34,764 bases of DNA from Candidatus Xenobia bacterium (GCA_045863235.1 BTUM01000082.1:1-34764), one strand, 5' to 3'; numbered from the stretch's first letter, positions 774 through 30,260 are shown. Notes: a model not told the origin generated them from the letters alone. Numbers and translations: made by a program.

Positions 774-2651
774 TCAGCGGGAGTCGAGAAGTTGTTGCAA
801 GACCCCGGCCGCGTCGGGATGGCCGAGCCGCCGGGCCTGCTCGAAGGCGGCCACGGCCTGCTCTCCTCGCTTGAGCGCGTAGTGAGCAAGGCCCAGATCG
901 AACCATGTCTGGGGCATGCCCGGGTCGGCCTGGAGAGCCTTCTCAGCGTAGGCGGCCGCCTCGGCCGGGCGTTCCAGACGCACCAGCATCATGGCCAGCA
1001 GAGCGCAAGCCTCGGGGTGAGCCTGGGCCATCTCCAGAAACTGGACCGCCTCGGGGTAACGCTTCTGGGATAGCTTGAGACGACCCAGGGCCAGCCAGGC
1101 ACGGTGGTCGCGGGGGTCGAGGTCGGCCGCGCGCATCAGGCTGTCCTCGCCCCCCCGGTCGTTGCCCATCGCTCGCTGCACCAGGCCGAGCTGGTAGTGG
1201 GCCTGGGCGTTGGTTGGCTGGATCTTGATCAACTCGGCAAAGGTGGCCGCCGCTCGCTCCAGCTTGCCCGACCGGGCCAGGGCCATACCCAGACCGATGC
1301 GATACTCGGGGGCGTGGGGCGCGAAGGTGAGGGCCAGCTCGAAGTTGCTCAGCGCCTCGGCGTAGCGCTCTCGTCCGGCCTGAAAGCAAGCCAGGCTGTA
1401 GTAGGCGCTGTGATACTGGGCGTCGAGCGTGAGAGCGCGCTCGTAGGACTTCTGAGCCGCGTCGTCCTCACCGAGAAGCTCCCAGGCAAGTCCGGTCTCG
1501 GTCCAGCCGCTGGCGTCCTCGCGCATGGTCAGGCCGCGCTCCAGGCACTCCAGGGCCGGACGCGGCTGGCCCATCTGCACCAGGGCGTGGCCTTTGTGCA
1601 TCCAAAGCTCGCGCCGCTGGGGATGGGTCTGAAGACAATGGTCGAGGAGCTCGAGCGCCTCTTCGCGGTGTCCCAGGCTGAGCAGGCACACGGCCCGGTT
1701 GTCGAGCTCGCTGACGTCGAAGCTGTCCGGCATGGGAGGCTGGGGAGCTGGCTGTCCGGTGAGTCTGGCGTAGATTCCCTCGAGCCTTTGTCGCACGGCC
1801 GCGAAGTCGCTCGGGCGGTCGGCGAGCTTCTTGGCCAGGCAGGCCTGGAGCAGCGCGTCGAGCTGCTCGTCGCCCTGGTAGCGGGGGGGAGCCAGGGAGA
1901 AATGCTGGTAGGCCAGCGTCATGGGGTTATCCCCCTGGAACGGGAGCTGCCCGGTCAGCATCTGGAAGAGCATGACGCCGAAGGAGTAGACGTCCGCCCG
2001 CGTGTCCACGTTCGCGGCATCAGTCCACTGCTCGGGCGGCATGTGGGTGCAGGTGCCCATCATGCTGCCGGCGCCCGTGAGCGAGACGTCGGGAGGGGCG
2101 GTAGCCCGACCCTGGCCTAGCTGCTGGAGGTAGTTGCCCATCGCCTGGTTCTGGCGGCTGGAGGGCTCGCTCACCTTGGCCAGGCCGAAGTCGGTAATCT
2201 TGAGCTGGCCGTCTCTGGTCAGCATGCAGTTGGCGGGCTTGATGTCGCGGTGGACCCGCAGGCCCATGGAGGCGGCGTGGGTCATGCCGTCGCAGAACTC
2301 CAGGGCCAGGCGCAGTGCCCGCTCGGGCTTACGCAGCTCGCGGGTGCCGATCAGGTCGGACAGATCGCCCCCGTCCACATACTCGAGAAAGAGCAGCAGC
2401 TCCTCGCCAAGGGGAAGGAAGTAGTGAGCGCGCACCAGGTTGGGATGGCTGCCCACCTTGATCCAGGTATAGGCCTCCTGGCGGAAGCGCTCGAGCACCT
2501 CGGCGTCGCGCTGTTCGGCCTGGAAGGTCTTGATGGCCAGGGGCACCTTGTCGCGCAGGTCGAAGGTGATGTAGACCCTCCCGAGGCCGCCCTGGAGCAC
2601 CCGGTAGACCTTCCAGCGGTTGTCGATGACCTGCCCGACGCGGTATTCCAT
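774..2651 (-). CDS. Hanks-type Ser/Thr protein kinase with C-terminal TPR repeats
   Basis: GGLGRV, AIK, HRDIKPAN, DFG, MPPE and DVYSFG motifs; TPR-patterned C-terminal half; AAGGAGG SD. Confidence 0.95.
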   Translation of the reverse strand: MEYRVGQVIDNRWKVYRVLQGGLGRVYITFDLRDKVPLAIKTFQAEQRDAEVLERFRQEAYTWIKVGSHPNLVRAHYFLPLGEELLLFLEYVDGGDLSDLIGTRELRKPERALRLALEFCDGMTHAASMGLRVHRDIKPANCMLTRDGQLKITDFGLAKVSEPSSRQNQAMGNYLQQLGQGRATAPPDVSLTGAGSMMGTCTHMPPEQWTDAANVDTRADVYSFGVMLFQMLTGQLPFQGDNPMTLAYQHFSLAPPRYQGDEQLDALLQACLAKKLADRPSDFAAVRQRLEGIYARLTGQPAPQPPMPDSFDVSELDNRAVCLLSLGHREEALELLDHCLQTHPQRRELWMHKGHALVQMGQPRPALECLERGLTMREDASGWTETGLAWELLGEDDAAQKSYERALTLDAQYHSAYYSLACFQAGRERYAEALSNFELALTFAPHAPEYRIGLGMALARSGKLERAAATFAELIKIQPTNAQAHYQLGLVQRAMGNDRGGEDSLMRAADLDPRDHRAWLALGRLKLSQKRYPEAVQFLEMAQAHPEACALLAMMLVRLERPAEAAAYAEKALQADPGMPQTWFDLGLAHYALKRGEQAVAAFEQARRLGHPDAAGVLQQLLDSR

Positions 2652-2671
2652 GGCTATCCTCCTTTGCAGCT

Positions 2672-2705
2672 CTACAGTTGCGCCACTCGATGTCCGCGAG
2701 TGTAG
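2672..2705. repeat. Degenerate CTACA...TGTAG palindrome related to the 18278/27310 element
   Basis: CTACAGTTGCG-N12-CGCGAGTGTAG; the right end resembles GGGAGTGTAG of the full element. Confidence 0.35.
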
Positions 2706-2814
2706 AAACCGCCTGCACCCCTACGCTGTCAACGTTGAGCTTCGTCGCAGCGCCCGTGCCAGCCGGTGAGAAAGTGTTTCGAGCCGCTCGTGGCACGGGT
2801 CAATGCGACCAGGT

Positions 2815-3441
2815 CTAGAGAGCCCACCAGAGCAGCAAGAGAATGACCGAGGCCGCCTTCCCGCAGCCAGATTTCCCCGCCGCGGCCAGGGTCTTCTCCA
2901 CTTCCTGGGCCTCAAGGTCGGCCTGCCGGGCCTCCTCCTCCTTGCCCGCCTTGCGCAGCATCTCGGCCCTGGCTCTCATGTAATTCGCCGACTCTCTGGG
3001 AATCTGGCCGACCTTCTTGCAGAACTCGAGCTCTGCCCGGGCGGCCTGGCCGAAGTCGTTGGCGGCCTGATCGAAAAGCTCCATACGAATATAGGTCTTG
3101 GCCCGGTTGACAAAAAAGAACGCGTTCAGGGGGTCGAGCTCGATGGCCCGGGTGAAGTCCTGCAGAGACCGGGCATGCTGGCCGAGCAGTCCGTAACCGA
3201 TAGCGCGGGTGCTGTAGAATGGCGCATAATCGGGCTGCACGGCGATTCCTCGCTCGCATTCGGCGATCATCTTGTCCGCCTCCCCGCGCACCTGAAAGAC
3301 CGAGGCCAGCCCGATGTATGCGTCACAGTAGCCCGGGTCGGCCTTCAGGGCCTGCTCGAACAGCTCGAGAGCCCTGTCGTGCTGGTCGGCGGCGTAGGCT
3401 TCCCGGCCCGATTTCATCAGGGTCTCGGCCTGACTGGCCAC
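2815..3441 (-). CDS. TPR protein paralog 2 (208 aa) with C-terminal SGCG plus hydrophobic tail
   Basis: GTG at 3441 overlaps the upstream TAG (TAGTG) and gives the same 208-aa length as the paralog; TPR pattern. Confidence 0.85.
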   Translation of the reverse strand: MASQAETLMKSGREAYAADQHDRALELFEQALKADPGYCDAYIGLASVFQVRGEADKMIAECERGIAVQPDYAPFYSTRAIGYGLLGQHARSLQDFTRAIELDPLNAFFFVNRAKTYIRMELFDQAANDFGQAARAELEFCKKVGQIPRESANYMRARAEMLRKAGKEEEARQADLEAQEVEKTLAAAGKSGCGKAASVILLLLWWAL

Positions 3442-4067
3442 TAGAGCGCCAACCACAGGAAAAGCAGGATGATGGCGGCTGCTTTGCCACACCCGGATCC
3501 GGCTTTCCCCGACATGGCCTTCTCGAGCTCTCGGGCTTCTCGCTCGACCTCCTGGGCCTCGTTTTCCTTACCCGCCCGACGCAGCATTTCCACGCGCGCC
3601 AGCATGAGGGCAACCGCCTCACGGGGGGGGTGCCCTCGCTCCTTGGAAACCTCGAGCTCAACCTGGGCGGCCTTCTGAAAGTCGTCGGCGGCCTTGTCGA
3701 AGGCCTCCATCTTGATGTAGGTCTTGGCTCGTGCGGCGTACTGAAGGAAGTTTCGAGGCTCCAGCTCGATGGCTCGGGTAAGATCTTGCAGCGACCGGGC
3801 ATGCTGGCCGAGCATCTGGTAGGCGACAGCGCGAGTGCTGTAGGCCAGGGCATGGTCTGGCTGAACGGCGATGGCTCGCTCGCACTCCTCGATCATCTTG
3901 TCAGCCTGGCCCCGCTTCTGGTGCACTGCGGCCCGAGCGATATAGGCCTCGCAGTAGCTGGGGTCGGCCTTCAGGGCCTGGTCGAAGAGCTCGAGCGCCC
4001 GGTCGACATCGCCGGCGCGGAAGGCTTCCATTCCTGCTTGCCGGTGAGCCTCAGCTTGCTGGTTCAT
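3441..4067 (-). CDS. TPR protein paralog 1 (208 aa) with C-terminal SGCG plus hydrophobic tail
   Basis: TPR repeats; colinear with 2815-3441 (DRALELF.QALKADP, LGQHARSLQD.TRAIEL); G-rich GGAG SD. Confidence 0.9.
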   Translation of the reverse strand: MNQQAEAHRQAGMEAFRAGDVDRALELFDQALKADPSYCEAYIARAAVHQKRGQADKMIEECERAIAVQPDHALAYSTRAVAYQMLGQHARSLQDLTRAIELEPRNFLQYAARAKTYIKMEAFDKAADDFQKAAQVELEVSKERGHPPREAVALMLARVEMLRRAGKENEAQEVEREARELEKAMSGKAGSGCGKAAAIILLFLWLAL

Positions 4068-4263
4068 GTGACTCCCCCCTCTTGGGGCAGATCTTTCACG
4101 TGGGGCGAGAGGCTCCTTCGTGTGGTCCTGGACCAGGCTGGTTGTCTTGAGAAATTTTCCCTGTTGCAGGCAGGATCTTGATCGGCCTTAAAGAATCGCC
4201 AGCCATTCGGACCCCCCAGCGGCGCGGGGTCCCGCCTTCCGCCCGGAAGGCCATCTGAAGGAG

Positions 4264-4674
4264 ATGACCCTGATTCCCTGTCAAGTCCCGGATACCTCAT
4301 TGGCTCACGAGCTTTCTGCTCGCTACCAACTGTCCGCCGTGGTGGCCTCGCGCGACCTCGACGGTGACTACGAGATCGACTGGATGGTGCTGGCTGCCTC
4401 CGGCGCTTGTTTGACCGCCTGTCGCCTGCTGATCGCTGGCGACGATCACTACTGCCTGCCGGGGGTTCTGGTGCAACGCATCCTGCGGGCCAATGCCGAG
4501 AACCCCTGCCTCAAGCTGATCGGGGGAAGCCTGCTGGTGGGCCAGAGGGGGTTCTCCGACCTGGGACGGTTCCGCGGCCTGGATCCGCACCAGGCGATGA
4601 AGCTGTTTCATCGTTCCCGCTCGGGCCGAGAGTGCGATTGGGACTGGCTCGACTGGTCTCGGGGAAGGGGCTGA
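4264..4674 (+). CDS. Hypothetical protein (136 aa)
   Basis: Fills the gap, GC3-biased codons; the AGGAG abuts the ATG so the start is uncertain; no family recognised. Confidence 0.55.
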   Translation: MTLIPCQVPDTSLAHELSARYQLSAVVASRDLDGDYEIDWMVLAASGACLTACRLLIAGDDHYCLPGVLVQRILRANAENPCLKLIGGSLLVGQRGFSDLGRFRGLDPHQAMKLFHRSRSGRECDWDWLDWSRGRG

Positions 4675-4685
4675 GAAGCGCGCTG

Positions 4686-4964
4686 CGGGTAAGGAACGGA
4701 TGCTCGCAGCCGCGCCGTCCGTGGGCGAACGCCTGTTTGTTCCCGGCGGGTAGGAACGGATGCTCGCAGCTGCGCCGTCCGTGGGGCGAACGCCGGTTTG
4801 TTCCCGCCGGGTAGGAACGGATGCTCGCAGCTGCGCCGTCCGTGGGGCGAACGTCTGTTTGTTCCCGCCGAGTACGAGCGGATGCTCGCGGCGAGGATGG
4901 GCGGGACGAACGCAGCGTCTGAGGCTGAGCCCGTGGGGCGAACGCCGGTTTGTTCCCGCCGGGG
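4686..4964. repeat. 61-bp tandem REP/BIME-like array (3 full units plus 1 interrupted unit)
   Basis: Units start at 4686, 4747, 4808 and 4869; each has a GTGGGGCGAAC...GTTTGTTCCCG imperfect hairpin; lies between convergent genes. Confidence 0.9.
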
Positions 4965-4967
4965 TGG

Positions 4968-5690
4968 CTACGCTTCCTGGAAGACCATCGAGTGCATGGC
5001 CACCACCTCGAGCAGCAGGTCGTCTTCCTTGCTGGTCATGGTGGACTCGGTCTCCAGGCTGAGCAGGTGCCCGGCAACCAGGTCGAACTCGAAGCGGCCC
5101 TTGCCGATCAGCGTGTAAACGTTGCCCTCGGTGCCGGCGGTATCGCCCTCGTAGCGCACTTCCTGCGAGTCGAACAAGATGGTGATCTTGTTCTCTTTCA
5201 AGGCGTTGACGCGATAGAAGCTGGCCACCTCGATGGGCTGGTTGCGACCGGTCGGGAAGTGGAGCTGGTTGACTTTCCACTCCGACCCCACGCCCACCTT
5301 GGGTTCGGGCAGGAGGAGCATGGTGGCCTCCATCGGGTCGCTGGCCTCGATCACCTGGCCCAGGGGGGTGTGCTTGAAGTAGACGATGCGCGGCTCGCCC
5401 ACCGGCAGCGGCTGCCCGTCCAGCGAGCGCTCCACCGGGGTGTGGTAGGAGAGGACATAGAAGCCCTGATCCTCCTCGTCCTGGGCGATCACCTTGTGGC
5501 GCACGTCCGAGACGAACTCTTCCTTGGCCCGGGTGGAGAATCGGGGCGAAGCGTCGGCGTTGCGGAAGACCTGCAGGGTCGAGCGGAAGCTCAGCTCCAG
5601 CCCGGGCTGGTAGCGATAGCGAAGCTCCTTGGAGGCCTGAGGCACCACCAGGCTCTCCGGGTCCAGGACGGGTCGCAGTACGGTGGTCAT
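4968..5690 (-). CDS. Hypothetical beta-rich protein (240 aa), DUF6263-like pattern
   Basis: ATG at 5690 overlaps the upstream stop (ATGA); LRYRYQPG, LPEPKVGVGSEW and GKGRFEFDLVAGHL patterns. Confidence 0.75.
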   Translation of the reverse strand: MTTVLRPVLDPESLVVPQASKELRYRYQPGLELSFRSTLQVFRNADASPRFSTRAKEEFVSDVRHKVIAQDEEDQGFYVLSYHTPVERSLDGQPLPVGEPRIVYFKHTPLGQVIEASDPMEATMLLLPEPKVGVGSEWKVNQLHFPTGRNQPIEVASFYRVNALKENKITILFDSQEVRYEGDTAGTEGNVYTLIGKGRFEFDLVAGHLLSLETESTMTSKEDDLLLEVVAMHSMVFQEA

Positions 5691-6769
5691 GAGCTCTCTC
5701 CTTCCAGTCTCTGGCGGGTCGCCACGTATTCGGGCTTGTCGCTCGAGACCGCCAGAGCGCGAGCGATGCTCTCCAGAGCCTCCTCGCGCTGGCCCAGGAC
5801 ATCCTGACACAGGGCCAGGTTGTTCCAGGCGTCGGCGTAGTCCGAGCGCAGCTCGACGGCCTTCTTGAGGGCCTGCATTCCCCGCTCGGGGTCGCCGGCC
5901 TGCAGCCAGGCGGTGCCGTGCTCATAGTGCAGGTCGGCTCGCTCGGGCAAGAGCAGGGCCGCCTTCTGGTAGGCCCGGGCAGCCTTCTCGAGCTTGTTGA
6001 GCTTGAGCAGGGTATCTCCTTGCAGCTCGAACACGCGGGCATCGGTGGGGTCGAGCTGGCCGGCCAGGGCCAGCGCCTCGAGAGCTTTCTCCCACTGCTC
6101 CGAGCGGTGCAGGGCCAGGGCCCAGAGGCGCACCACCCGCGGGTTCCACTCTTCCTCGTTTTCGTCTAAGGCGCGCTGGGCGGCCTCGGCGGCCTCGGCA
6201 AACTGGCCCTGCCCGAAGAGGGCGCTGGCCAGGTTGTACTCGATGTCCGGCGAGGTGCCCAGGCGCGCGGCCGCGCGCAGGGCGTCGGCGGCCTCGGCGT
6301 AGTCCTCGAGGTGGTGGCAGGCCAGCCCGAGCAGGCGCTGATACCCGGCGTTGGTGGGGTAGAGCGCCACTGCCTGGCGCAGGGCGGCTCGGGCTCGCTC
6401 GTAGTTGGGCTGCTCCTGGTAGAAGAAGGCGCAGCCAAGTCGGTAGTAATGCTCGGGATTGAGGGGCTCGCCCTCCACCGCTTCTTGATAAAAGTGGATG
6501 GCGTCGCGGAACATGCCCTTGTTGAACAACACTCCGGCCAGGTCGGAGCGGTGCTCGGACGAGGTTACGTCCAGCTCGCAGGCCTGCTTGAGAAAGAACA
6601 GGGCGTTCTCACTGTCACCCTGCACGGCGTACAGGTTGCCCAGCGCGGCATAATACTCCGCCTGGCCATCCTGTTGCACGGCAGAAGTGAGGCAGTTGAG
6701 CGCCCGTTCGTTGTCTCCGCTGCGGGCCGCTTCCAGCCCCTCTTCGTAGAGGTCGCTGGCGGTCGGCAC
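5687..6769 (-). CDS. TPR repeat protein (360 aa)
   Basis: About 9-10 TPR-like units; GTG directly follows the TAA of the upstream gene. Confidence 0.9.
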   Translation of the reverse strand: MPTASDLYEEGLEAARSGDNERALNCLTSAVQQDGQAEYYAALGNLYAVQGDSENALFFLKQACELDVTSSEHRSDLAGVLFNKGMFRDAIHFYQEAVEGEPLNPEHYYRLGCAFFYQEQPNYERARAALRQAVALYPTNAGYQRLLGLACHHLEDYAEAADALRAAARLGTSPDIEYNLASALFGQGQFAEAAEAAQRALDENEEEWNPRVVRLWALALHRSEQWEKALEALALAGQLDPTDARVFELQGDTLLKLNKLEKAARAYQKAALLLPERADLHYEHGTAWLQAGDPERGMQALKKAVELRSDYADAWNNLALCQDVLGQREEALESIARALAVSSDKPEYVATRQRLEGESS

Positions 6770-8377
6770 TTACGCCCTGGCGCCCACCGCGAGCTTGCGG
6801 TAGCTCGGCCACCAGTCCCAGGTCGCCTTCTCTTGTCCATCCTGGACGAAGGTCGACTTGTAGTCGGTGTGGGCGGTGTAGATCTTGGAGATGCCTAGCT
6901 CGCGGCAGGTCTTGATCTCACCCTCGGTGACGAGGGCGTCGCCGGTCTCGTCGACCCACACGTGGATGTTGTTCTTCTCCATGTCGGCCAGCGAGACGAA
7001 GCCTTTCTCCTCGGTGTCGAGCTTGGCCAGCTTGGAGTACCCGTCCTTGAAGCCGCCGGCGTCGCCGAAGAGGTGCTTGCCGTTGGGAACATCCTGCTTG
7101 TCGTCCGGCTGGCACAGCAAGGCACCGCCTGGATTGACCCACTCCACCAGCTCCTTGACTCCATCGGCGTCGAGGTCGAACATCCGCTTGTTTTTGGCGC
7201 TGAACTTGTGAGGATGGGGTTTCCACTCCCCGTCCTCGACCGGGGGCACGCCGTCGCCGGCAAGATCGAGCAGGATCGGGGTGCCGGACTTCACGGCCGC
7301 TTCGTAGGAGGCTTTGGCCCGGGCGTAAGCGGCCTGGTCCTGCACCCCGCCGCCGCCGGAGCAGCCCTGGCCGGACTCGGACATGGCCACCGAGATGGCC
7401 AGGCTCATCGGGATGCCCTGCGAGTTCATGAAGGTCACCGCCAGCGACATCGCCATGGCCGAGCCGCCAGCGCCCTCGGCCGCCGCTCCGGCGCCGCTCT
7501 GGCCGCCCTTGGCCTGGTAGAGGTTGGCGTAGGAGTCGTTGACCTGAGCCATGGACTTGCGGGTGCCAGAAAGCTTGCCCCGGCCGCCGACCTGTCCGTC
7601 ATGCCCCTTCATGCCGATCTTGCCGAACTCGGACTCGACCATCATCTGCTTATAAAGCTCGGCCGGGCCAACCTTGTTGATGGCCTTGGGGTTCTTCAGC
7701 TTGGGGTCTTGCTTGCCCTGAGCGTACTGCTGGCGGAGCTGCTCGAAGGGCATGCCGAAGCGCTGCTCGAGGGCCTGCTTGAAGGCTTCCGGGGGAGCGT
7801 TGGGGGGCAACATCTTCATACCGGCGCCGGGGCCGAGCGACTTGGGATTGGCGATCAGCTGCTGGACAGCGCCCGGGCCCTGCATCCCCGGGGAGAAGCC
7901 CTGTCCGAAACCAGGCTGCATTCCGGGGAAGCCACCGCCGCCGGGCAAACCGGCCTGGGCGTGGGCGAAGGGCATTCCGTTGGGGCCGATGCCCGCGAAG
8001 GCCTGGGCGCCGGGCACGCCGGCGCCGGCGAAGGCCTGCGGCATACCGCCGAACTGGGGCATCCCGCCGAACTGAGGCATGCCGAACTGGCCAAAGTTCT
8101 GGGGCCCGAAGGGCTGGGGCTGGCCGAACTGGGCCAGGGGGTTCTGCTGCTGGCCGGCCCCGCTCATGCCGGCGAAGAGGCTCATCAGGGTGAGCAGCAG
8201 GGGAAGCTGCTGGGCGCTCAAGTTGGGGGCGCCGAAGTTGTTGCCGAGCAGCGCGCTCCCGGCGTGGCCGTCGCAGGCGGGGCAGTGGCCGCCGAGGTTG
8301 GGGCCGATACTGGCCGTGAAGCCGGGGGCGCCGACAAAATTGGCCGTCAGAGCCGGGTTGAAGTTGTTTTGGATCAT
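6770..8377 (-). CDS. Gly/Gln/Pro-rich protein with a C-terminal FrpC self-processing-module (SPM)-like domain
   Basis: PILLDLAGDG...FDLDADG...WV...NGKHLFGD...GYSKLAKLD...VWVDETGD...GEIKT.RELGI follows the SPM motif order; AAGGAG SD. Confidence 0.85.
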   Translation of the reverse strand: MIQNNFNPALTANFVGAPGFTASIGPNLGGHCPACDGHAGSALLGNNFGAPNLSAQQLPLLLTLMSLFAGMSGAGQQQNPLAQFGQPQPFGPQNFGQFGMPQFGGMPQFGGMPQAFAGAGVPGAQAFAGIGPNGMPFAHAQAGLPGGGGFPGMQPGFGQGFSPGMQGPGAVQQLIANPKSLGPGAGMKMLPPNAPPEAFKQALEQRFGMPFEQLRQQYAQGKQDPKLKNPKAINKVGPAELYKQMMVESEFGKIGMKGHDGQVGGRGKLSGTRKSMAQVNDSYANLYQAKGGQSGAGAAAEGAGGSAMAMSLAVTFMNSQGIPMSLAISVAMSESGQGCSGGGGVQDQAAYARAKASYEAAVKSGTPILLDLAGDGVPPVEDGEWKPHPHKFSAKNKRMFDLDADGVKELVEWVNPGGALLCQPDDKQDVPNGKHLFGDAGGFKDGYSKLAKLDTEEKGFVSLADMEKNNIHVWVDETGDALVTEGEIKTCRELGISKIYTAHTDYKSTFVQDGQEKATWDWWPSYRKLAVGARA

Positions 8378-9338: not shown

Positions 9339-9563
9339 TTAGCCCGCGAAGCGAAAGCGGGCCAGGCGGTTGAGCACCTCGGCCGGGACGGTCCAACCCT
9401 GACCTTTGTTGCGGTGGGGCTCGAGGGCTTCCTCGGGCAGGTCCACCTCGAGCGTGACCTGGCCCCGACCGGTGGGCAGCCTGGAGAGTCGAACTCGGCC
9501 CGAGAATCCCGTGGCCAGAATGGCCTCCGCCCTGGCTCGAGAGGTGCGCAGGTAGACCTTCAT
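9339..9563 (-). CDS. Small 74-aa protein, possible degenerate ADP-ribosyltransferase-like fold
   Basis: ATG overlaps the upstream stop (ATGA); KVYLRTS..AEAILATGF...V.LS...LEVDLP...W.VP. Confidence 0.65.
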   Translation of the reverse strand: MKVYLRTSRARAEAILATGFSGRVRLSRLPTGRGQVTLEVDLPEEALEPHRNKGQGWTVPAEVLNRLARFRFAG

Positions 9564-12500
9564 TCGCGGTTCTTGGCTACGCGCACGCTGCCCACGATGA
9601 CCGAGTCTTCCTTCTCCTGCACTTCGCTGCGAGGGCCGCCCTGAGAGGCCACCACTATCCAGTAGTTTTCCTGGTAGCTGGCCAGATCTTTGGCCAGCTG
9701 GCTGCCGACCTTCACGATGTTGGCTCGCGAGCCGTCCTGCTCGATCGCGCTGGAGGCTTTCTCGAGTAACGGCAGCATCAGCCTGGTATCCCCCCAGCCC
9801 TTGCAGGCGACCATCAGCTCGTCGAAGAGCTTTCGGGCCACCGCGGTTGCGCTCTCGTCGCTGAGGTAGTTGCCGACGTAGGTCAGGAAGCTTCCCAGCC
9901 GAGCGATGTCCTGCGGAGTCCGGTTCGGCTCCTGGTTCAAGAAGGCGTGGGCCAGGTAGATCCGGTCGTTGGTGGAGGGCAGATCCATCCCCAGCACCTT
10001 CTCCATCGCCTCGAAGTAGCTCGCCTCCATCTGCTTGCCTCCGCCCCGGGCCATCGCCTTGAGCTCCTCGCAGGTCAGCCGGGCCACCCGCAGCTGCTGG
10101 CTGCCGCCGCCCGCCTGTCCCAGAGCCGCCTGGCCCACCAGCCAGAGCTGGAGCATGGGGTCGGCGTCCGTCCGCCGGTCGATCTGGTGGAAGGCGTAAT
10201 GCATGGCGTTGGCCCGCAGGTCCACCGTCTCCAGCGGAAGATCGGCCATGCGTCGCAGCATGTTGCCTGAGTGCCGCAGGGCCGGCGCGCCGGCCGAGGC
10301 GGCGGTGATCTCCCCCCACTTGGCAAAGGCGGCTACCCGGCTGGCAGAGCCGGGCCAGTTGATCTGTTGGACCGTGCTGCGCAGACTCCCCACCTGGTTG
10401 GCCAGCAGGGCCAGGCCTGCTTTGAGAGCCGGACCCGCCTCGGTGGGGGGCAGCCACTGCTCCAGATCCAGGAAAAACCCGGCTACTTCCTCGTTGGCCT
10501 GGTTGCCCTGGGCTCCGGCCTCGGTCTTGATGGCCTGGAAGATCTGGCGCTGCATGTGCAGCTCGTCCTCCTGGTTGCCGCTGGCCAGGGTGCCGGCCAG
10601 ATAGGCCAGCGGGATCCCTCTGGCCTGGCGGAAGTGGTCGAAGTAGTCCACCGCCCGCTGCAGGGTGGCGCTGCCAGCGGTGGGGTCGCTGAGCGGTTGC
10701 TGGCTGTGCTGGATCAGAAAGTCGAGCAGCGATTCCTCATTGGGCTGGCTGACCAGCGGCTTGAGGAGGGGCAGAGCCCGGGTCAGGCAGCGGGCGGCCT
10801 GGACGCTATCCCCCGCCGAGGACGCGGCCGCTTTGACCTGGAGAAGCGCCTGGTGCAAGCTGGCGGGCTGAGGCAGGCTTTTCCAGCGGGCCAGGGCAGA
10901 CAGGATGGTCTGATCGCGGTAGGGTCCCCGGGCGCTCTCGGCCACTGCCACGAAGGCCGAGAGGTAGGCGGCCTGCTTGGGATCCTGAGCCCCGGCCGCT
11001 TCCCAGCGCATGAGCTCGAGGCTGGACTTCGGGTCGCGCGTGCTGGTCACCGTATCCGAGGCGACCAGCCCGGGAGTCAGTTTGGGATCGGCCACCAGGC
11101 GCGCGGCCCCGCGGGCCAGTTGATCCCCTGACAGCTTCAGCTTGCGGGCAATCTGCAGCCAGCTGTCCAGGCGGGAGCGATCGGTCGCGCCCTCGCGCAA
11201 AGTGGTGAAGATGGCGTCCCCGAGGGCATCAGGAACCGGACGCTGGAGCAAGGACTGCACCAGCGGCATCCCGGCGGTGGCGTCGAAGGCTTTGCCCGAG
11301 GCGGCCTGGTCCAGGCAGAACTGGTGGATGAGGCGCCTGATGCTGTCGTCGGACGAGCTTCTGGCAAGCGGGCGACAGAAGTCGCGCCAGGCACCGGGCA
11401 AGAACTCTTCCAGCGCAGCGCCGACCTCGGCCGGGCGGTTGCTGGAGCGAAGCACGCCGGCGCCCACGAACACGGCTCCCTTTCCCTGTCCCAGCCTGGT
11501 CAGGGCGGCTTTGCGGAGCTCCTCGCTGTCGCATGTGGCCAGGCGCATGAGCTCGGCGTCCTCCGTCCCGGCCAGTTGTGCCAGGGGAGCAAGGGCGGCT
11601 TTCAGGCGCTCGGGGGGGAGCTGGTCCACCCGTCCCCCGCACGCCTTCACGGCCTCCGCCGGGCTGCCCGGGCGGGTTCTGGAGGCTTCCAGTGCCCATT
11701 CGGCCGGCTCGGAGGGGTCGAGCATGGCCGCCAGGGAGGCCAGAAAAGCTCCCTGCTCGGCACTCTCGCTGGTTGCCTGACCGGTTAACCATTCGGCCGC
11801 CAGGTCGCCGCGCAGACCGACCGCCTGGCTGATGGCCTGGTCGGCGTCCAGCTTGCCTTCGAGAAGATCTAGCGTGGTGGCCAGGGCTTGCTCCGGAGCC
11901 AGTTGCTTCTGCTGGCACCAGGCGGCGAACCCGGGATAGTGGGCGTTCTTGGGCAGGTCATCGATCGCCCTGCGAGCCAGCTCGGGCGAGAGCTTCCCCA
12001 GCTCCTGGGAGACATCTCGCAGGGCCGCCAGCGGCTCGGTTCGGGTAGCCACGGCCCGCAGGATGGCACCCTTCTCCCGGTCGCTCTGGCCGCTCGCCAG
12101 CCAGCTGCGAGCCCAGCTCTGCTGCTCAGCAGGGAGGCTGGAGAGCACTTCTTGCTCGACCTTCAATCGCCGCTCGGGAGCCACACGGGGCAGCGCCGTG
12201 GCGGCCATCGACAAGACCGAGGCTCCGGGTCGGCTCAGCTCGAGCAGTCCGGCCTGCAACATCGAGTAGTCGCCATCCAGGCTGGCCAGCAGGCAGGCAG
12301 CCTTTTCGCCCGAGGCCGATAGCTCTCCCACGACCTGCCTCATCAGCGCCAGGCGGGCCGCTGTATGGAGCCCCGTGGCTCTGGTTGCCCAGGCCGCCAG
12401 GGCGGGGGGGTCGGAGGGACGAGGGGTGGACAAAAGCTCCAGTCCCGCTCGACCGGCGTTCGAGCCGGCCAGAGCCCGGGCCATCGGATCGTCGGATCGA

Positions 12501-12841
12501 CGCCCCACTTCGCGACAGGCCAGCTCGGCCCGCTCCGGGGGAGCCTCAGGGCCCAGCGCGGCCAGTGCCACTGCGGCCAGGAACGAGCTCGAGGCGGCCG
12601 CCTGGCTGGCCGTGCTGTCTCCGATGCGGGCCAGCGCTTCGCGCAGCAGGGGCACGCGCAACTTGTCTTGCTTCTCTTCAGCGGCAACGGTCTGGACCAG
12701 GCGAGCGGCCGGCTCATACTCTGGCAGGGCGGCCAGCTGCTCCAGGGCCTCGTTGGCGGCCTGCAGCCGCTTGCTGGTGCCATAGAAAAGGTAGCTCTTG
12801 TCCATGCGCGCAACGGCGTCATGGCAGATCGGTCCATGCAT
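9560..12841 (-). CDS. Large Ala/Leu-rich helical orphan (1093 aa) ending in EVQEKEDSVIVGSVRVAK
   Basis: 3.3-kb uninterrupted ORF; no signal peptide; no SD, likely leaderless. Confidence 0.85.
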   Translation of the reverse strand: MHGPICHDAVARMDKSYLFYGTSKRLQAANEALEQLAALPEYEPAARLVQTVAAEEKQDKLRVPLLREALARIGDSTASQAAASSSFLAAVALAALGPEAPPERAELACREVGRRSDDPMARALAGSNAGRAGLELLSTPRPSDPPALAAWATRATGLHTAARLALMRQVVGELSASGEKAACLLASLDGDYSMLQAGLLELSRPGASVLSMAATALPRVAPERRLKVEQEVLSSLPAEQQSWARSWLASGQSDREKGAILRAVATRTEPLAALRDVSQELGKLSPELARRAIDDLPKNAHYPGFAAWCQQKQLAPEQALATTLDLLEGKLDADQAISQAVGLRGDLAAEWLTGQATSESAEQGAFLASLAAMLDPSEPAEWALEASRTRPGSPAEAVKACGGRVDQLPPERLKAALAPLAQLAGTEDAELMRLATCDSEELRKAALTRLGQGKGAVFVGAGVLRSSNRPAEVGAALEEFLPGAWRDFCRPLARSSSDDSIRRLIHQFCLDQAASGKAFDATAGMPLVQSLLQRPVPDALGDAIFTTLREGATDRSRLDSWLQIARKLKLSGDQLARGAARLVADPKLTPGLVASDTVTSTRDPKSSLELMRWEAAGAQDPKQAAYLSAFVAVAESARGPYRDQTILSALARWKSLPQPASLHQALLQVKAAASSAGDSVQAARCLTRALPLLKPLVSQPNEESLLDFLIQHSQQPLSDPTAGSATLQRAVDYFDHFRQARGIPLAYLAGTLASGNQEDELHMQRQIFQAIKTEAGAQGNQANEEVAGFFLDLEQWLPPTEAGPALKAGLALLANQVGSLRSTVQQINWPGSASRVAAFAKWGEITAASAGAPALRHSGNMLRRMADLPLETVDLRANAMHYAFHQIDRRTDADPMLQLWLVGQAALGQAGGGSQQLRVARLTCEELKAMARGGGKQMEASYFEAMEKVLGMDLPSTNDRIYLAHAFLNQEPNRTPQDIARLGSFLTYVGNYLSDESATAVARKLFDELMVACKGWGDTRLMLPLLEKASSAIEQDGSRANIVKVGSQLAKDLASYQENYWIVVASQGGPRSEVQEKEDSVIVGSVRVAKNRE

Positions 12842-12849
12842 AGGGGTGC

Positions 12850-12881
12850 AGTTTATCCGACGGGGCTGAAAGGGGGCTGAA
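12850..12881 (-). promoter_or_regulatory. Putative promoter: TTCAGCCCC direct repeat plus TAAACT -10
   Basis: Perfect 9-bp direct repeat with 11-bp period (12862-12870, 12873-12881); -10 ends 8 nt before ATG. Confidence 0.55.
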
Positions 12882-12914
12882 TGTTCAGCGAAGTTGGGTA
12901 AGGCGCGGCGTGGT

Positions 12915-15500: not shown

Positions 15501-16979
15501 ATGGATCCGATCGCACTGTCCGTCAACACTGCCCCCGCTGGCCCGCCGCTGGCTACCCCGCCAGGAGGGGCGGCCCAGGGCGCGCAGGGAGCCCCGGCCC
15601 AGGCCCGCCCGGCCGACCCGGCCAACCCGATCGTGCCGGCCGAGGCCACCCAGGCCTCCGATGACCTGCTGGCAGGGTTCCAGGGCATCCTGCTGCCCGG
15701 GATGCAGCAACAGCAGATCCCGCGCTCGCAGAATCCGCTGATGGGCGTGCCCATCGGGCAGCTCACCGACAAGCAGATGGATGAGGTCTTCGGGAGCCGA
15801 TCGGATGAGGCCAGGGGGGTTGCGTCCGTGCTGCCCTCGCTGACCGCGGGCGACTTTCTGCAGCTTCGCGAGGACCCCACTGCCCTGGGCGAGATCATGG
15901 AGCTGATGGAGCTGCGCCCCGACCTGAACGTGGGCGACCTGATGTACCGCGACTCCAAGGGCAACCTGCAGATCAACGGGGCGGTGCGCGATGCCAACTC
16001 GCGCGATCTCATGGTCAACCGGCCCGACATCAAGCCGGTGGAGCTCACCGACATGCGAGCCTCCTTCGCGGCCGATCTCAAGCAGCCGGCTCTGGCCGAC
16101 GTCGCCTACAAGTCGGCCCTGCAGTTGCTCAAGACCCGCTCGGACGTGCGTCCGCAAGACCTCTCCCAGCTGATGACCCGCATCCTGCGCGGCACAGGCG
16201 GCAGCAATGACCCCGGCAACGCCGCCGCCGCGGTGGAGATCTTCAAGACCGGCACCAAGCTCATGCAGACCCGCACCGACATCCAGCCGCACGACGTGGC
16301 TCGCCTCTCCGACACGGTGGCCATGATGGGCGGCAAGCAAGACGGCAAGTCGGGCATGAAGATCGCCAACGCCTTTGCGCAGGCGGCCGACTTCCTGGTC
16401 AGCAAGCCCGGCTCCAACGTGGGCGAGGTGGCCGAGCTGGCCACCACCGTGCGCCAGCGCATGCCGGGCGAGAGCGGTGACGATACCGATGCCCGGCTGG
16501 GGGTGTTCACCACCGGTCTTCAGATGATGAAGAACGTGCCCGGCCTGGGTGCCGCCGGCATCGGCACCATGCTGCAGAAGGCGGCCATGGGCCCGCCGCC
16601 CCGCGCGGGGCAGGACATGATCAACGCCTTCAACACGATGGGGGCCAACATGCTCAACGGCCGGGCCAGCATGAATCTCCTGACCGACCGCACCCAGCGC
16701 CCGACCGACCCCCGCAACCAGCAGCAGCAGGCCCAGGGCGGCGAGATCCTGCTCGATGCCGGCGGACGCGAGGTGGCTCCCATCCAACCGATCGCCGGGC
16801 GCGACCAGCAGGGCGACGCGGACGGCCAGGGAGGCCAGGGCCAGAACGACCAGGGGCAGAACGGGCAGAACGGCCAGGGTCAGAACGGTCAGGCGGAAGA
16901 TCTGAACAACGCCCCCCTGGTCGGTCCCGAGCGCACCCCCATCCCCCGCCAGTTCATCCCCCGCAACCTGCGTCGGTAG
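15501..16979 (+). CDS. Hypothetical protein with about six RPD[LI]-type helical repeats and a Gln/Gly-rich tail (492 aa)
   Basis: AAGGAGG SD before ATG 15501; strong GC3 bias. Confidence 0.85.
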   Translation: MDPIALSVNTAPAGPPLATPPGGAAQGAQGAPAQARPADPANPIVPAEATQASDDLLAGFQGILLPGMQQQQIPRSQNPLMGVPIGQLTDKQMDEVFGSRSDEARGVASVLPSLTAGDFLQLREDPTALGEIMELMELRPDLNVGDLMYRDSKGNLQINGAVRDANSRDLMVNRPDIKPVELTDMRASFAADLKQPALADVAYKSALQLLKTRSDVRPQDLSQLMTRILRGTGGSNDPGNAAAAVEIFKTGTKLMQTRTDIQPHDVARLSDTVAMMGGKQDGKSGMKIANAFAQAADFLVSKPGSNVGEVAELATTVRQRMPGESGDDTDARLGVFTTGLQMMKNVPGLGAAGIGTMLQKAAMGPPPRAGQDMINAFNTMGANMLNGRASMNLLTDRTQRPTDPRNQQQQAQGGEILLDAGGREVAPIQPIAGRDQQGDADGQGGQGQNDQGQNGQNGQGQNGQAEDLNNAPLVGPERTPIPRQFIPRNLRR

Positions 16980-24086: not shown

Positions 24087-25490
24087 TCAGCTTTTGGGCG
24101 TCTCGACTTCCCAGTCGCGCTTGCGCAGCTTGAGCCGCACCCCTCCCACCACCATCTGCCCGTCCTTCTCGCCGATGGCGGTGGTCTCGCCGGCTCCGGC
24201 GGCGGCCCGGGCCATGGCCAGCAACGACCCCGAGGCCGGGGCGGGAAGCTGCTCCAGGCTCCGCAGAGTGGAGCGGATCAGCTCGATATCCTCATTGTAG
24301 GATTCGGAACGAGCCAGCTGACCATCCAGGCGCTGGCACAGGGTTGTCACCTCGGGGGTGGCGTAGAGTGCTCCGATGGCCTGCAGGGCGGCCTGGCCCG
24401 AGCGGGAGGCGCTGCGCAGGTTGATGGCCGCGGCCGCTTCGGTCATGCGCTCGGCCACCGTGCTGGCCGAAGGACGAGGCGATTCGGCCAGGGCCAGGGT
24501 GGCCACGCGGCACACTTCGAACTGGGCCAGGTGGGTGCTGCTCTGGCTGGCGGCCGCCAGGGCCATGGAGGCCACCGGCTCGTGCTCGAGCTGGCCTTTG
24601 AATTGCGACAGGGCCAGGGTGGCCACCTCGCTCTTGTCGATGGGGCTGGGCGGATAAAGGCTCAGGGTCTGGTTGACCCGGTTGAAGACCGAGAGCGCGT
24701 CCGTCTTGCCAGCGTCGAAGTCTTCCAGCACCGAGCGGGCCACCATCAAGCAGACCTTGTAGTCGCGGCACTTTTCCAGCATTTCCAGGGCCACCCTGGA
24801 GACCGCCGCCTGCTCGGGTTTCTGGGAGGCTTCCTGCAAGAGCTCGGTGGCTCGAGCGTAGCTGGCTTGCACTCCGGCGACCCGGTCGAGTCGGCTGAGG
24901 TAGCCTTCCGGGGCGGCCGGAGCCGGGGCCGGCCCCTGGCTGATCGAGGTGAGGGCTTCCTTGTAGAGTCGAGCGTCCTGGTTATGAGTGCGGTTGAAGG
25001 TAGACTGGTGCAGCGCCTGGCCGGCCTCGGGATGCTGGCTCAGCTCGCGACAGGCCAGCTCGCCGATCTTGGCGTGGTCGGCCTGGAACCGCTCGCAGGC
25101 GCTCATCATCTCCAGTGCCAGGGGCGCGATCAGACCGTTCGCGAAAGGCTCGGGCTGCTTGAGCGCGGCCCGGTAGAGAGCCCACTCGGAGTCGTAGCCG
25201 GTCACCGCTGCTCCGGCCTGGATGCAAAAGCCTGCCGCCACCTGGCAGGCGGTGCGCTGGGAGAGATACTCCATGGCGGCGCGGCCCAGGGTGACCTTGG
25301 CTTTTGTGTCTTTGCCAAAGTCGGACATCCGCAGGGCCTGGGAATACAGCTCGCGCCCTTCGACGGCTTTGTCGGGCTCTTTCTGGTAGCGGTCGGACAA
25401 CTCGCCCAGCATCGAGCGCGTGGACGGGTCGGGCGCCACCACTTGCAGGTGTTGCGCCAGGCCAGCCAGATCGCGGTGGAGCACGTTCAC
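24087..25490 (-). CDS. Helical-repeat orphan (467 aa) ending in IGEKDGQMVVGGVRLKLR
   Basis: Long ORF with GC3 bias; GTG start 6 nt after TAGACT; no SD and no signal peptide. Confidence 0.85.
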   Translation of the reverse strand: MNVLHRDLAGLAQHLQVVAPDPSTRSMLGELSDRYQKEPDKAVEGRELYSQALRMSDFGKDTKAKVTLGRAAMEYLSQRTACQVAAGFCIQAGAAVTGYDSEWALYRAALKQPEPFANGLIAPLALEMMSACERFQADHAKIGELACRELSQHPEAGQALHQSTFNRTHNQDARLYKEALTSISQGPAPAPAAPEGYLSRLDRVAGVQASYARATELLQEASQKPEQAAVSRVALEMLEKCRDYKVCLMVARSVLEDFDAGKTDALSVFNRVNQTLSLYPPSPIDKSEVATLALSQFKGQLEHEPVASMALAAASQSSTHLAQFEVCRVATLALAESPRPSASTVAERMTEAAAAINLRSASRSGQAALQAIGALYATPEVTTLCQRLDGQLARSESYNEDIELIRSTLRSLEQLPAPASGSLLAMARAAAGAGETTAIGEKDGQMVVGGVRLKLRKRDWEVETPKS

Positions 25491-25496
25491 GCCGAG

Positions 25497-25528
25497 AGTC
25501 TACCCGGAAGCCCTCAAAGAAGGCTAAA
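25497..25528 (-). promoter_or_regulatory. Putative leaderless promoter similar to the one at 12850-12881
   Basis: TTTAG-N6-TTGAG then CGGG-TAGACT; 20/31 ungapped identity with the 12850-12880 segment. Confidence 0.5.
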
Positions 25529-25721
25529 CCGGGGGCTCGGCCAGCGAGCAGGTTTCGCTGGTGGGATCGAAGACCAGCCTCAGCTTTCCCGATTCCAGGG
25601 CTGCCCGCATCGTCTTCACCTTGTCCGCCACCGGGGTCAGCTCGGTGCCGTCCCGAGAAGCGATCTCCTCGAGCAGCCCCTGGAGCGCCTCGGGACTCAA
25701 GTCGCGAAAAGGGATCTCCAT
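25524..25721 (-). CDS. YheU (UPF0270) family protein
   Basis: MEIPFRDLSPEALQGLLEE..SRDGT...L.SG...LVFD..SETC. Confidence 0.88.
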   Translation of the reverse strand: MEIPFRDLSPEALQGLLEEIASRDGTELTPVADKVKTMRAALESGKLRLVFDPTSETCSLAEPPV

Positions 25722-26491: not shown

Positions 26492-27205
26492 TCAGGCGGT
26501 TGGAGGAACGGCCTGCACCTGGCCACGCTCCTTGAGGTAGCTCAGCACGTGGTAGGAATAGGCGGCGATATCGCCGGCCAGGCCGATGGCGGTGAAGGTG
26601 GGGGCCACTCCCGCCAGGGCGGGGAGCAGCTTGTCGCCCAGAGCGCCCACCAGGCCCACCACGTCGGTGGCCACGTGCACGCCGTCCACGATCTTGTCGG
26701 TCAGGGGGGCGTCCTTGTTGGCCAGGGTATCGCGCAGCTTCTTGGCATCGAGCAGCAACGCAACCACGCGCAGCATCGGCAGAAAGGCTTTGTCGGCCAC
26801 GGTCTGGACCTCGCGAGGCAGGCCGGAGTAAACCTGGGTTTTGACGCCCAAAGCCGACTCCTTGAAGGCGAAGGCCGGGTCGGCCTGCACGAGCTTGCTG
26901 GCCTCCTCAGCCGCGGCGCTGATGAAGAGCTGGCCGCCGCGGATGGTGCGCTCCATGAGGCTGGGTCCTTCCTTGCTGACCTTGAGCACCTGTTCACCGT
27001 CCACGGTGATGGTCAGCTCCGAGCCGTTGCCGCCGATCTTTCCTGCCACCTGCTTGGCGAATTCAGGCGAGCTGAGCAGGTTCTCCACGAGCTTGTCGCC
27101 CAGGTCGGGGGTCTCGGGGGGCGTGCCCGGGTTTTCGGGCGGGGGAGGTGGGGTTGGAGTCTCGGCTCGCATCGGCCGGGTGTAGGGGGTGGATGTGATC
27201 TGCAT
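26492..27205 (-). CDS. Hypothetical protein (237 aa) with Pro-rich N-terminus and hydrophobic C-terminal helices
   Basis: GGAG SD before ATG 27205 (MQITST...). Confidence 0.8.
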   Translation of the reverse strand: MQITSTPYTRPMRAETPTPPPPPENPGTPPETPDLGDKLVENLLSSPEFAKQVAGKIGGNGSELTITVDGEQVLKVSKEGPSLMERTIRGGQLFISAAAEEASKLVQADPAFAFKESALGVKTQVYSGLPREVQTVADKAFLPMLRVVALLLDAKKLRDTLANKDAPLTDKIVDGVHVATDVVGLVGALGDKLLPALAGVAPTFTAIGLAGDIAAYSYHVLSYLKERGQVQAVPPTA

Positions 27206-29897: not shown

Positions 29898-30260
29898 TTA
29901 ATGATTGTCCACCAGCCGATTGAGCACAACCTCGCCCGTTGCGAGCTGCAGTGCGATCTCCTGGCCGTAGTCGCGCACGTAAGTGGTCAGGTGAACCACT
30001 CCTCGGTCGCGGTCAAAGGTCAGGCGCTGGCCGCTCAGGTGGTCGCCCAGGATCCACTGATTGGGCGGACCTCGCCGCGGGTCGCAGTTGGGAGCCAGGC
30101 GCCAGCCATCCTGCAGCATCAGCTTGGGCTTGGCCCAGTAGCTCTTCACTCGAAAGCTCTTCAGGTCCACCAGCGCCGACATCATTCCCGCGCTGCGCAG
30201 GTTGCTGAGCAGGCTCGCGTCCACGTGCGAGCTGTAGAAGACGTTCCCGTTTCGGTTCAT
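29898..30260 (-). CDS. Hypothetical protein (120 aa)
   Basis: GGAGGT SD 8 nt before ATG; globular composition. Confidence 0.75.
   Translation of the reverse strand: MNRNGNVFYSSHVDASLLSNLRSAGMMSALVDLKSFRVKSYWAKPKLMLQDGWRLAPNCDPRRGPPNQWILGDHLSGQRLTFDRDRGVVHLTTYVRDYGQEIALQLATGEVVLNRLVDNH

Follow-up and report, generated by a model that had tools for sequence, protein, structure and literature searches.

The stretch of DNA analysed here, referred to as the window, is 34,764 nucleotides long and constitutes contig C82 of an 8.36-Mb Vulcanimicrobiota genome (G000) that is 97.6% complete. Two long orphan genes are located on its minus strand, and the C-termini of the encoded proteins, which had been picked out in a preliminary description of the sequence as sharing a motif, are both present. 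The first gene (9560..12841, minus strand) encodes a protein of 1093 amino acids that has no Pfam match, has paralogues, and whose homologues are close ones only (49-100% identity), all of them ending in the tail that occupies its own last 20 residues (9563..9622, minus strand; 26.2 bits). The second (24087..25490, minus strand) encodes a protein of 467 amino acids, again without a Pfam match, that is predicted to comprise an all-helical body, a short linker and a tail at residues 439-456 (24123..24176, minus strand) with the predicted fold of a three-stranded beta-meander. The model of the 467-residue protein has a mean pLDDT of 82.5, the tail region falling to about 50 with the same three strands at low confidence, and comparison with PDB folds returned none at E≤0.001. 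Among nine homologues of this protein, extending down to 57% identity, the VVGGVR segment is unvarying, and invariant residues account for 11 of 19 positions in the tail, compared with 165 of 430 in the body. Each gene is preceded by a predicted promoter. That of the 1093-residue protein (12850..12882, minus strand; score 28.9) is composed of a TTCAG direct repeat with an 11-bp period (12882-12866), a 10-nt spacer and a TAAACT -10 element (12855-12850), with the ATG 8 nt downstream, such that the transcript is predicted to be leaderless. A degenerate form of the direct repeat (25529-25513), also followed by a 10-nt spacer and a -10 element (TAGACT), makes up the promoter of the 467-residue protein (25497..25529, minus strand; score 30.4), the GTG start being 6 nt downstream and the gene likewise predicted to be leaderless.

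The motif shared by the two proteins is real. However, the exact consensus originally drawn from them was over-fitted, since it matches just these two of 59,553 ORFs in the genome. The consensus of the tail, which spans 18 residues and mostly ends a few residues from the stop, is [VIL]-x-E-x4-V-x-V-G-G-V-R-[VL]-[RKP]-[RK]-R. With the corresponding profile, 187 of the 7,113 called genes score at least 10 bits within their last 60 residues, compared with a single match in mid-protein control windows; a cut-off of 12 bits is passed by 178 of the 187 tails, spread over 81 contigs, and the larger number still counts one FHA protein and about three matches of 10-11 bits that are probably false tails. 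An iterated, looser profile gave 167 matches of at least 12 bits, 162 of which lie within 30 residues of a stop where approximately 15 would be expected by chance, thereby ruling out a chance origin, and the same profile found no match among reversed decoys. The proposal that a conserved C-terminal tag is carried by diverse cargo is therefore strongly supported, as the many further matches are nearly all C-terminal. The bodies of the tail proteins are mostly but not wholly unrelated: 183 of them group into 92 BLAST clusters, and the 1093-residue protein has paralogues.

Conservation within the 162 tails is pronounced. Four hydrophobic positions are kept at 99-100% and a fifth at 88%; position +7 is K or R in 91%, with no tail stopping before it, and at least two K/R residues occur within four residues after the third strand in 149 of the 162. 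The tail follows a helix and then a linker rich in P, G, S and T (48-66% at positions -15 to -11), as had been noted from the two founding proteins, and is succeeded by 0-30 free residues. Synonymous codon use in the tails is close to the genome average, indicating that the constraint acts at the protein level. A DNA repeat or recombination site was excluded, as synonymous codons vary and there is no conservation past the stop in 66 tails. A free C-terminus is not required either, since five proteins carry the tail internally: in four it is followed by a repeat domain of 170-220 amino acids, and the fifth has two tails. The repeat domains are found at C3:76161, C3:123379, C32:68044 and C135:163 of the genome, and two body-plus-tail units in tandem at C10:924.

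AlphaFold predictions for 91 tails yielded a three-stranded beta-meander with a core pLDDT of 76-78, i.e. three strands as opposed to the two of the hairpin envisaged in the preliminary description. From the alternating residue pattern, the hydrophobic residues would sit on one face of this fold, and a partner for the tail is expected on that account; a homo-trimer prediction scored 0.02, a value that carries no weight either way. Searches of domain libraries were without result. Pfam searches with the 91 tails returned five families with one member each (best E 0.028), five tail fragments gave no match in NCBIfam, and the best sequence match in the PDB had an E of 1.4. Foldseek found no structure at E≤0.001, only generic beta-meander entries such as GAPDH at E≥1.5, and VIA found none at Z≥2, the atlas entries for the tail all being below threshold. 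The Pfam, NCBIfam, PDB, Foldseek and VIA searches are all weak with a query of 31 residues. A suspected likeness to strands of FlgD, CsrA or the foldon had no Pfam support. For the C-terminal strands of FHA domains as a possible origin, one FHA protein scored 13.8 bits and the hhalign probability was 8.9%. A search of the literature outside subscription journals found no description of the motif or of the machine discussed below. The tail is real, widespread within one lineage, and matches no described domain in the libraries searched.

The distribution of the tail was examined with the same profile in 201 genomes of the phylum, of which 26 have a match. Besides G000, 14 genomes distributed over five families have at least three matches, whereas the eleven with a single weak match (E 0.004-0.048) were left out of this tail-rich set. 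All 33 of the matches examined in relatives lie within 16 residues of a stop, a few divergent C-terminal copies occur in one genome of family f3, and a search of 1.84 billion representative sequences returned 14 significant proteins, every one of them tail-ended. The scans of the proteome and of relatives that had been called for thus found further, C-terminally enriched matches and no described domain. The consensus holds in all five families, in keeping with a partner that the bacterium itself produces. A tail protein of 291 residues (C100:12369-13244, locus L029) has tail-bearing homologues in genomes of distant families (G035 and G020), and together with the beta-propeller proteins described below it is likely to represent ancestral cargo.

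The promoters of the two window genes proved to be members of a much larger set. A TAnnnT element is located 5-8 nt before the start of 83 of 182 tail genes, versus 490 of 5,621 others, with TTCAG-N5-TTTCAG 10 nt upstream of it, giving the overall pattern TTCAG-N5-TTTCAG-N10-TAnnnT. A genome scan at a score of at least 18 identified 365 sites, versus 11 in decoys, which were assigned to 327 genes, 114 of them with tails; 73 of the 187 tail genes have no promoter match at this score, and reversed-genome decoys never reach a score of 25. Since the first matrix had been trained on tail genes, a second was retrained on 198 non-tail sites, and it recovered 117 of 187 tail genes, the two in the window among them, versus 152 of 6,730 others (odds ratio 72). 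Within the regulon, tails occur in 98 of 201 leaderless genes and in 5 of 90 genes with a 5' leader of at least 20 nt. The exact pattern, for which reversed controls gave no match, is present in 7 of 10 genomes and is conserved in four families; it was not found in the tail-bearing genomes G070 and G020. Pho-box and SARP sites also have an 11-bp direct repeat about 10 bp before the -10 element, and these systems resemble the present one, as does the PIP-box/HrpX regulon, in that one direct-repeat promoter marks a large regulon of secreted proteins. They differ in that the sequence here is TTCAG-N5-TTTCAG and the tail genes are mostly leaderless. The genome has 25 BTAD matches. All four RNA runs are contigs, and X1 covers 29 of 30 bins but neighbouring genes too.

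The N-termini of the tail proteins are also distinctive. Many begin M-x-I/V and are rich in S, P, T, A and Q, with D-x-V-x-L-S frequent, a style also seen in flagellar-type export leaders, and the tail proteins of distant families likewise begin MKIEN-, MEISN- or MRIND-. A leader classifier was trained on tail-less co-regulated genes, a set defined on co-regulation as opposed to proven cargo, and with 98 tail proteins it gave an AUC of 0.92 versus background and 0.82 versus other leaderless genes. The share above threshold was 76% for tail proteins versus 61% for tail-less co-regulated proteins (p 0.11); FliK and the needle-like protein pass this threshold, FliE and the FlgJ-like protein fall below it, and the two window proteins, with scores of -0.5 and -0.8, are below its value of 0.63. 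None of the 98 is Sec-like, and by a crude rule for hydrophobic leaders 1 of 186 tail proteins is classed as such, versus 1,080 of 6,134 background genes, in agreement with the earlier statement that a Sec signal is lacking. With respect to the features used to recognise type III cargo, therefore, a Sec signal is absent while an S/P/T-rich leader and an export apparatus are present, and the tail proteins are probably type III-type cargo.

Pfam scans of 154 of the 187 tail proteins revealed no match for 117, 26 beta-propellers, 6 proteins with MAM-type (MAM/jelly-roll) repeats and 3 proteins that match enzyme families, two of them weakly, and a hydrophobic segment is present in 37 of the 187. 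Conversely, enzymes make up 22 of the 70 tail-less regulon proteins scanned (from a total of 191), with RNase II, endonuclease I, phosphatases, peptidases, GDPD and acyltransferases among them. The difference in enzyme share (3 of 154 versus 22 of 70) has a p value of 6e-10, a looser cut-off having applied to the first tail batch.

A candidate machine for export of these proteins is encoded by a flagellar-type basal-body and export cluster at C27:54348-79219 (loci L047 and L048) and C74:1-3983 (L181). The C27 part comprises FlgBC, FliEFGHIJKMNOPQR, a gene of the FlgE/F/G family, an flhB-like gene read from the sequence, and FlhA at the cluster end, while flgF, flgG, flgJ and fliA are on C74. 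The FlhA protein fits the FlhA model (809 bits) better than the SctV model (609 bits). Three tandem copies of a gene for a protein of 66-81 amino acids follow flhA, one of them with the promoter motif described above; the motif was not found before the core export genes. This family matches no SctF model, and is termed needle-like from its size, position and copy number; a 473-residue protein beside the cluster ends in the same domain. Searches of the 97.6% complete genome for flagellin, FlgD and FlgI were negative, as was that for a motility stator, the single MotA/ExbB match adjoining an ExbD-like gene. Flagellin is present in 13 of 38 genomes, and eight of these, sampled in pairs, have two full-length FlhA proteins. 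In a tree of 21 FlhA sequences, which was midpoint-rooted without an SctV outgroup and carries a long-branch warning, the copies linked to flagellin group apart in a clade of their own (100/100), and the G000 protein is placed outside it among short-branched copies linked to the 66-81-residue gene. That gene occurs in 53 of the 201 genomes (0 of 114 in family f15), with an flhA homologue nearby at 14 of 51 loci, and is present in all 14 tail-rich relatives. In family f2, 14 of 19 genomes have this gene and no tail match, from which it follows that export as such does not need the tail.

According to PMC3459982, a non-flagellar type III system has the secretin SctC with it and lacks flgB, flgC and fliE, which are regarded there as flagellum-specific. 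The cluster resembles an injectisome as described there in having a flagellum-derived export core without flagellin, adjoining small needle-sized genes, and a large set of co-regulated genes for cargo that bears N-terminal leaders. It differs in that flgB, flgC and fliE are kept, the cluster is without a secretin and FlhA scores as flagellar, and judged by PMC3459982 it qualifies neither as a motility flagellum nor as an injectisome. Secretins are encoded in T2SS-like and type IV pilus-like loci or alone, not in the export cluster. None of the 19 genomes searched had a match to the T6SS marker TssC or to a VirB4-type ATPase (PF19044); the control for the latter matched in 7 of 14.

Proteins that could recognise the tail were also sought. 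FliW is absent from the genome, and no conserved neighbour gene of tail genes and no tail-linked locus were seen; searches for CesT and eCIS-tube proteins carry no weight, as their controls were themselves unmatched. Five proteins consist of only the cytoplasmic part of FlhA (C80:28012, C3:26973, C1:377631, C106:14866 and C107:13658; loci L002-L006), one such protein being apparently fused to a FliG-like N-terminus, and FlhA-family matches in relatives number up to 19 per genome. These paralogues were rejected as readers of the tail, being equally common in tail-poor genomes. A family of about 115 residues has a member in the window (29898-30260, minus strand) and 10 paralogues, several of which adjoin genes with leaders and, in family f3, lie close to the export cluster. 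As a candidate chaperone it tracks the tail in part: within f2 its distribution agrees with that of the tail (5 of 19 genomes, the same genera), but every one of the 16 tail-poor f3 genomes has a member too, and searches of f4, f11 and f19 returned none.

Taken as a whole, the tail seems to be an additional, second signal of type III-type cargo and not the sole export signal, and it looks like a new form of C-terminal sorting tag tied to a seemingly undescribed flagellum-derived export system. The reading that we favour, with a probability of roughly 0.4, is that a partner of the bacterium's own flagellum-derived type III export machine recognises it as a docking tag, by which approximately 180 non-enzymes would be sorted into a cargo class of their own. 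One activator would bind the TTCAG repeat and switch on more than 300 genes together, and the S/P/T/A/Q-rich leader would feed the cargo into the FlhA/FlhB/FliPQR gate. The hydrophobic face and terminal Arg of the tail could then bind a chaperone or the export gate, in the manner of flagellar subunit C-termini, so as to send propellers, helical-repeat and membrane-inserting proteins out apart from digestive enzymes, the non-enzyme class probably serving to establish contact with prey or host cells. A precedent comes from PMC10936197, according to which the hook subunits of flagella carry a targeting signal at the C-terminus, and late subunits and needles are bound by chaperones at theirs. The signal of FlgE and FlgD is alike in being C-terminal, beside N-terminal ones, and in serving a flagellar-type gate; it lies, however, within structural subunits (I376, R380 and Y382 of FlgE in PMC10936197), whereas here some 180 proteins without a structural role carry a portable beta-meander behind a linker. 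The tail and the C-terminal signals of flagellar subunits gave no sequence match. Against the docking reading, the leaders of both window proteins are below threshold, 73 of the 187 tail genes have no promoter match and none of the candidate readers qualified; in addition, the cluster has no secretin and no FlgI for passage of the outer membrane, and T2SS-like and pilus-like secretin loci exist.

Like every function proposed here, a role of the tail in export, as opposed to tethering or localisation in a target cell, is inferred. Rather unlikely, in our estimation, is a post-export tether, whereby cargo would pass through the type III channel with its N-terminus leading and the tail, emerging last, would clip to a filament tip or the cell surface and display a library of adhesin-like domains for prey recognition. 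The binding-type bodies (26 beta-propellers and 6 MAM/jelly-roll proteins of 154, one helical body, and the 37 of 187 with a hydrophobic segment) are consistent with this, as are the tail-less enzymes, the flexible linker between body and tail, and the occurrence of the machine in many genomes without tails. However, bodies of these types are widespread among injected effectors, a partner at the tip or surface was not found, and five proteins have about 170-220 residues past an internal tail. It is also unlikely that the tail is an address used in the target cell after injection, its hydrophobic face and basic end binding an anionic membrane or a conserved prey or host protein. The basic residues after the third strand (149 of 162 tails) would fit, the co-regulated nucleases, phosphatases and haem peroxidase resemble injected or digestive enzymes, and predation has been suggested for a related family, and for that family only, in PMC9259500, whose tables list T3SS-model matches marked 'no_decision'; PMC11484240 makes no mention of secretion. 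Yet the membrane-acting enzymes of the regulon (acyltransferases, GDPD and the desaturase) have no tail, the classical nuclear-localisation pattern, rejected on this basis, fits only 7 of 162 tails, and the consensus is unchanged over five families.

We regard the remaining alternatives to the docking tag as improbable. In one, tails would pack together in foldon-like fashion to oligomerise or co-assemble the bodies, as might be expected of a hydrophobic face that must be buried, of a tail placed after a linker at the chain end, and of the one two-tailed protein; the near-invariant basic end and the single consensus over about 90 body families nevertheless favour a single shared partner. In another, equally improbable, the tail would signal export through a secretion pathway that is separate and hitherto undescribed, as the preliminary description had it. 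Part of that proposal stands, namely the C-terminal tag on diverse cargo, and it is in keeping with the many unrelated proteins that share the tag without a Sec signal, the weak leaders of the window proteins, and a distribution of the tail narrower than that of the type III cluster. A wholly separate pathway is less likely because the same proteins have type III-like leaders, at least as strong as those of tail-less co-regulated proteins, and a promoter in common with a needle-like gene, and because the searches for VirB4-type and TssC proteins found no second system and no tail-linked locus was seen. The analogy made with the T9SS CTD and T4SS signals is apt in so far as these are common C-terminal tags on unrelated cargo, with a basic end in the case of the T4SS; T9SS cargo, however, has a Sec signal and a CTD of about 70-80 residues as opposed to an 18-residue tag without a Sec signal, and in comparison with the T4SS no VirB4-type ATPase was found and the tail is predicted to be folded. 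No common C-terminal tag is known among injectisome effectors. Finally, a turnover tag, i.e. a protease signal that removes unsecreted cargo, is very improbable: the chain end is basic and hydrophobic and C-terminal degrons exist, but the predicted fold includes a fixed GG turn, 0-30 free residues come after the tail, and five proteins have it internally.

In its broadest form, the docking-tag reading leads to the tentative suggestion that this lineage turned a duplicate flagellar basal body into an injection machine of its own, independent of the injectisome, with a new needle subunit, a one-promoter regulon of more than 300 genes, and cargo addressed at both ends, an N-terminal leader for export being supplemented by a folded tag at the C-terminus, which would separate about 180 proteins of contact or recognition from digestive enzymes. 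The prevailing view is that N-termini of low conservation address type III cargo, and the ranking of cargo by such machines is a question of long standing; if the suggestion is correct, a short, conserved and portable C-terminal tag on some 180 cargo proteins would make ranking testable by simple fusions. The tag and promoter together also single out several hundred candidates for secretion in an uncultured, possibly predatory lineage, and an export machine that falls under the definition of neither flagellum nor injectisome would be a candidate second exaptation of the flagellum.

Several further genes were observed in the course of the analysis. Enzymes and domains with export-like leaders occur in the regulon, for example at L163:8317-10062, L166:14510-16963, L175:3928-4905 and L162:9676-11229, leader-fused examples being RNase II, a haem peroxidase with TPR, a lipid desaturase and a UVB_sens_prot domain. 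The window itself encodes a kinase-TPR protein followed by several TPR proteins (774-6769, minus strand) and a long Pro/Glu-rich protein with a PilZ domain at its end (31768-34764, minus strand). Four other window genes (27413-29743, 26492-27205 and 6770-8377 on the minus strand and 15501-16979 on the plus strand) have high leader scores with neither a tail nor a promoter match; their products include a subtilase with about 14 similar paralogues, and may represent a further class of cargo.
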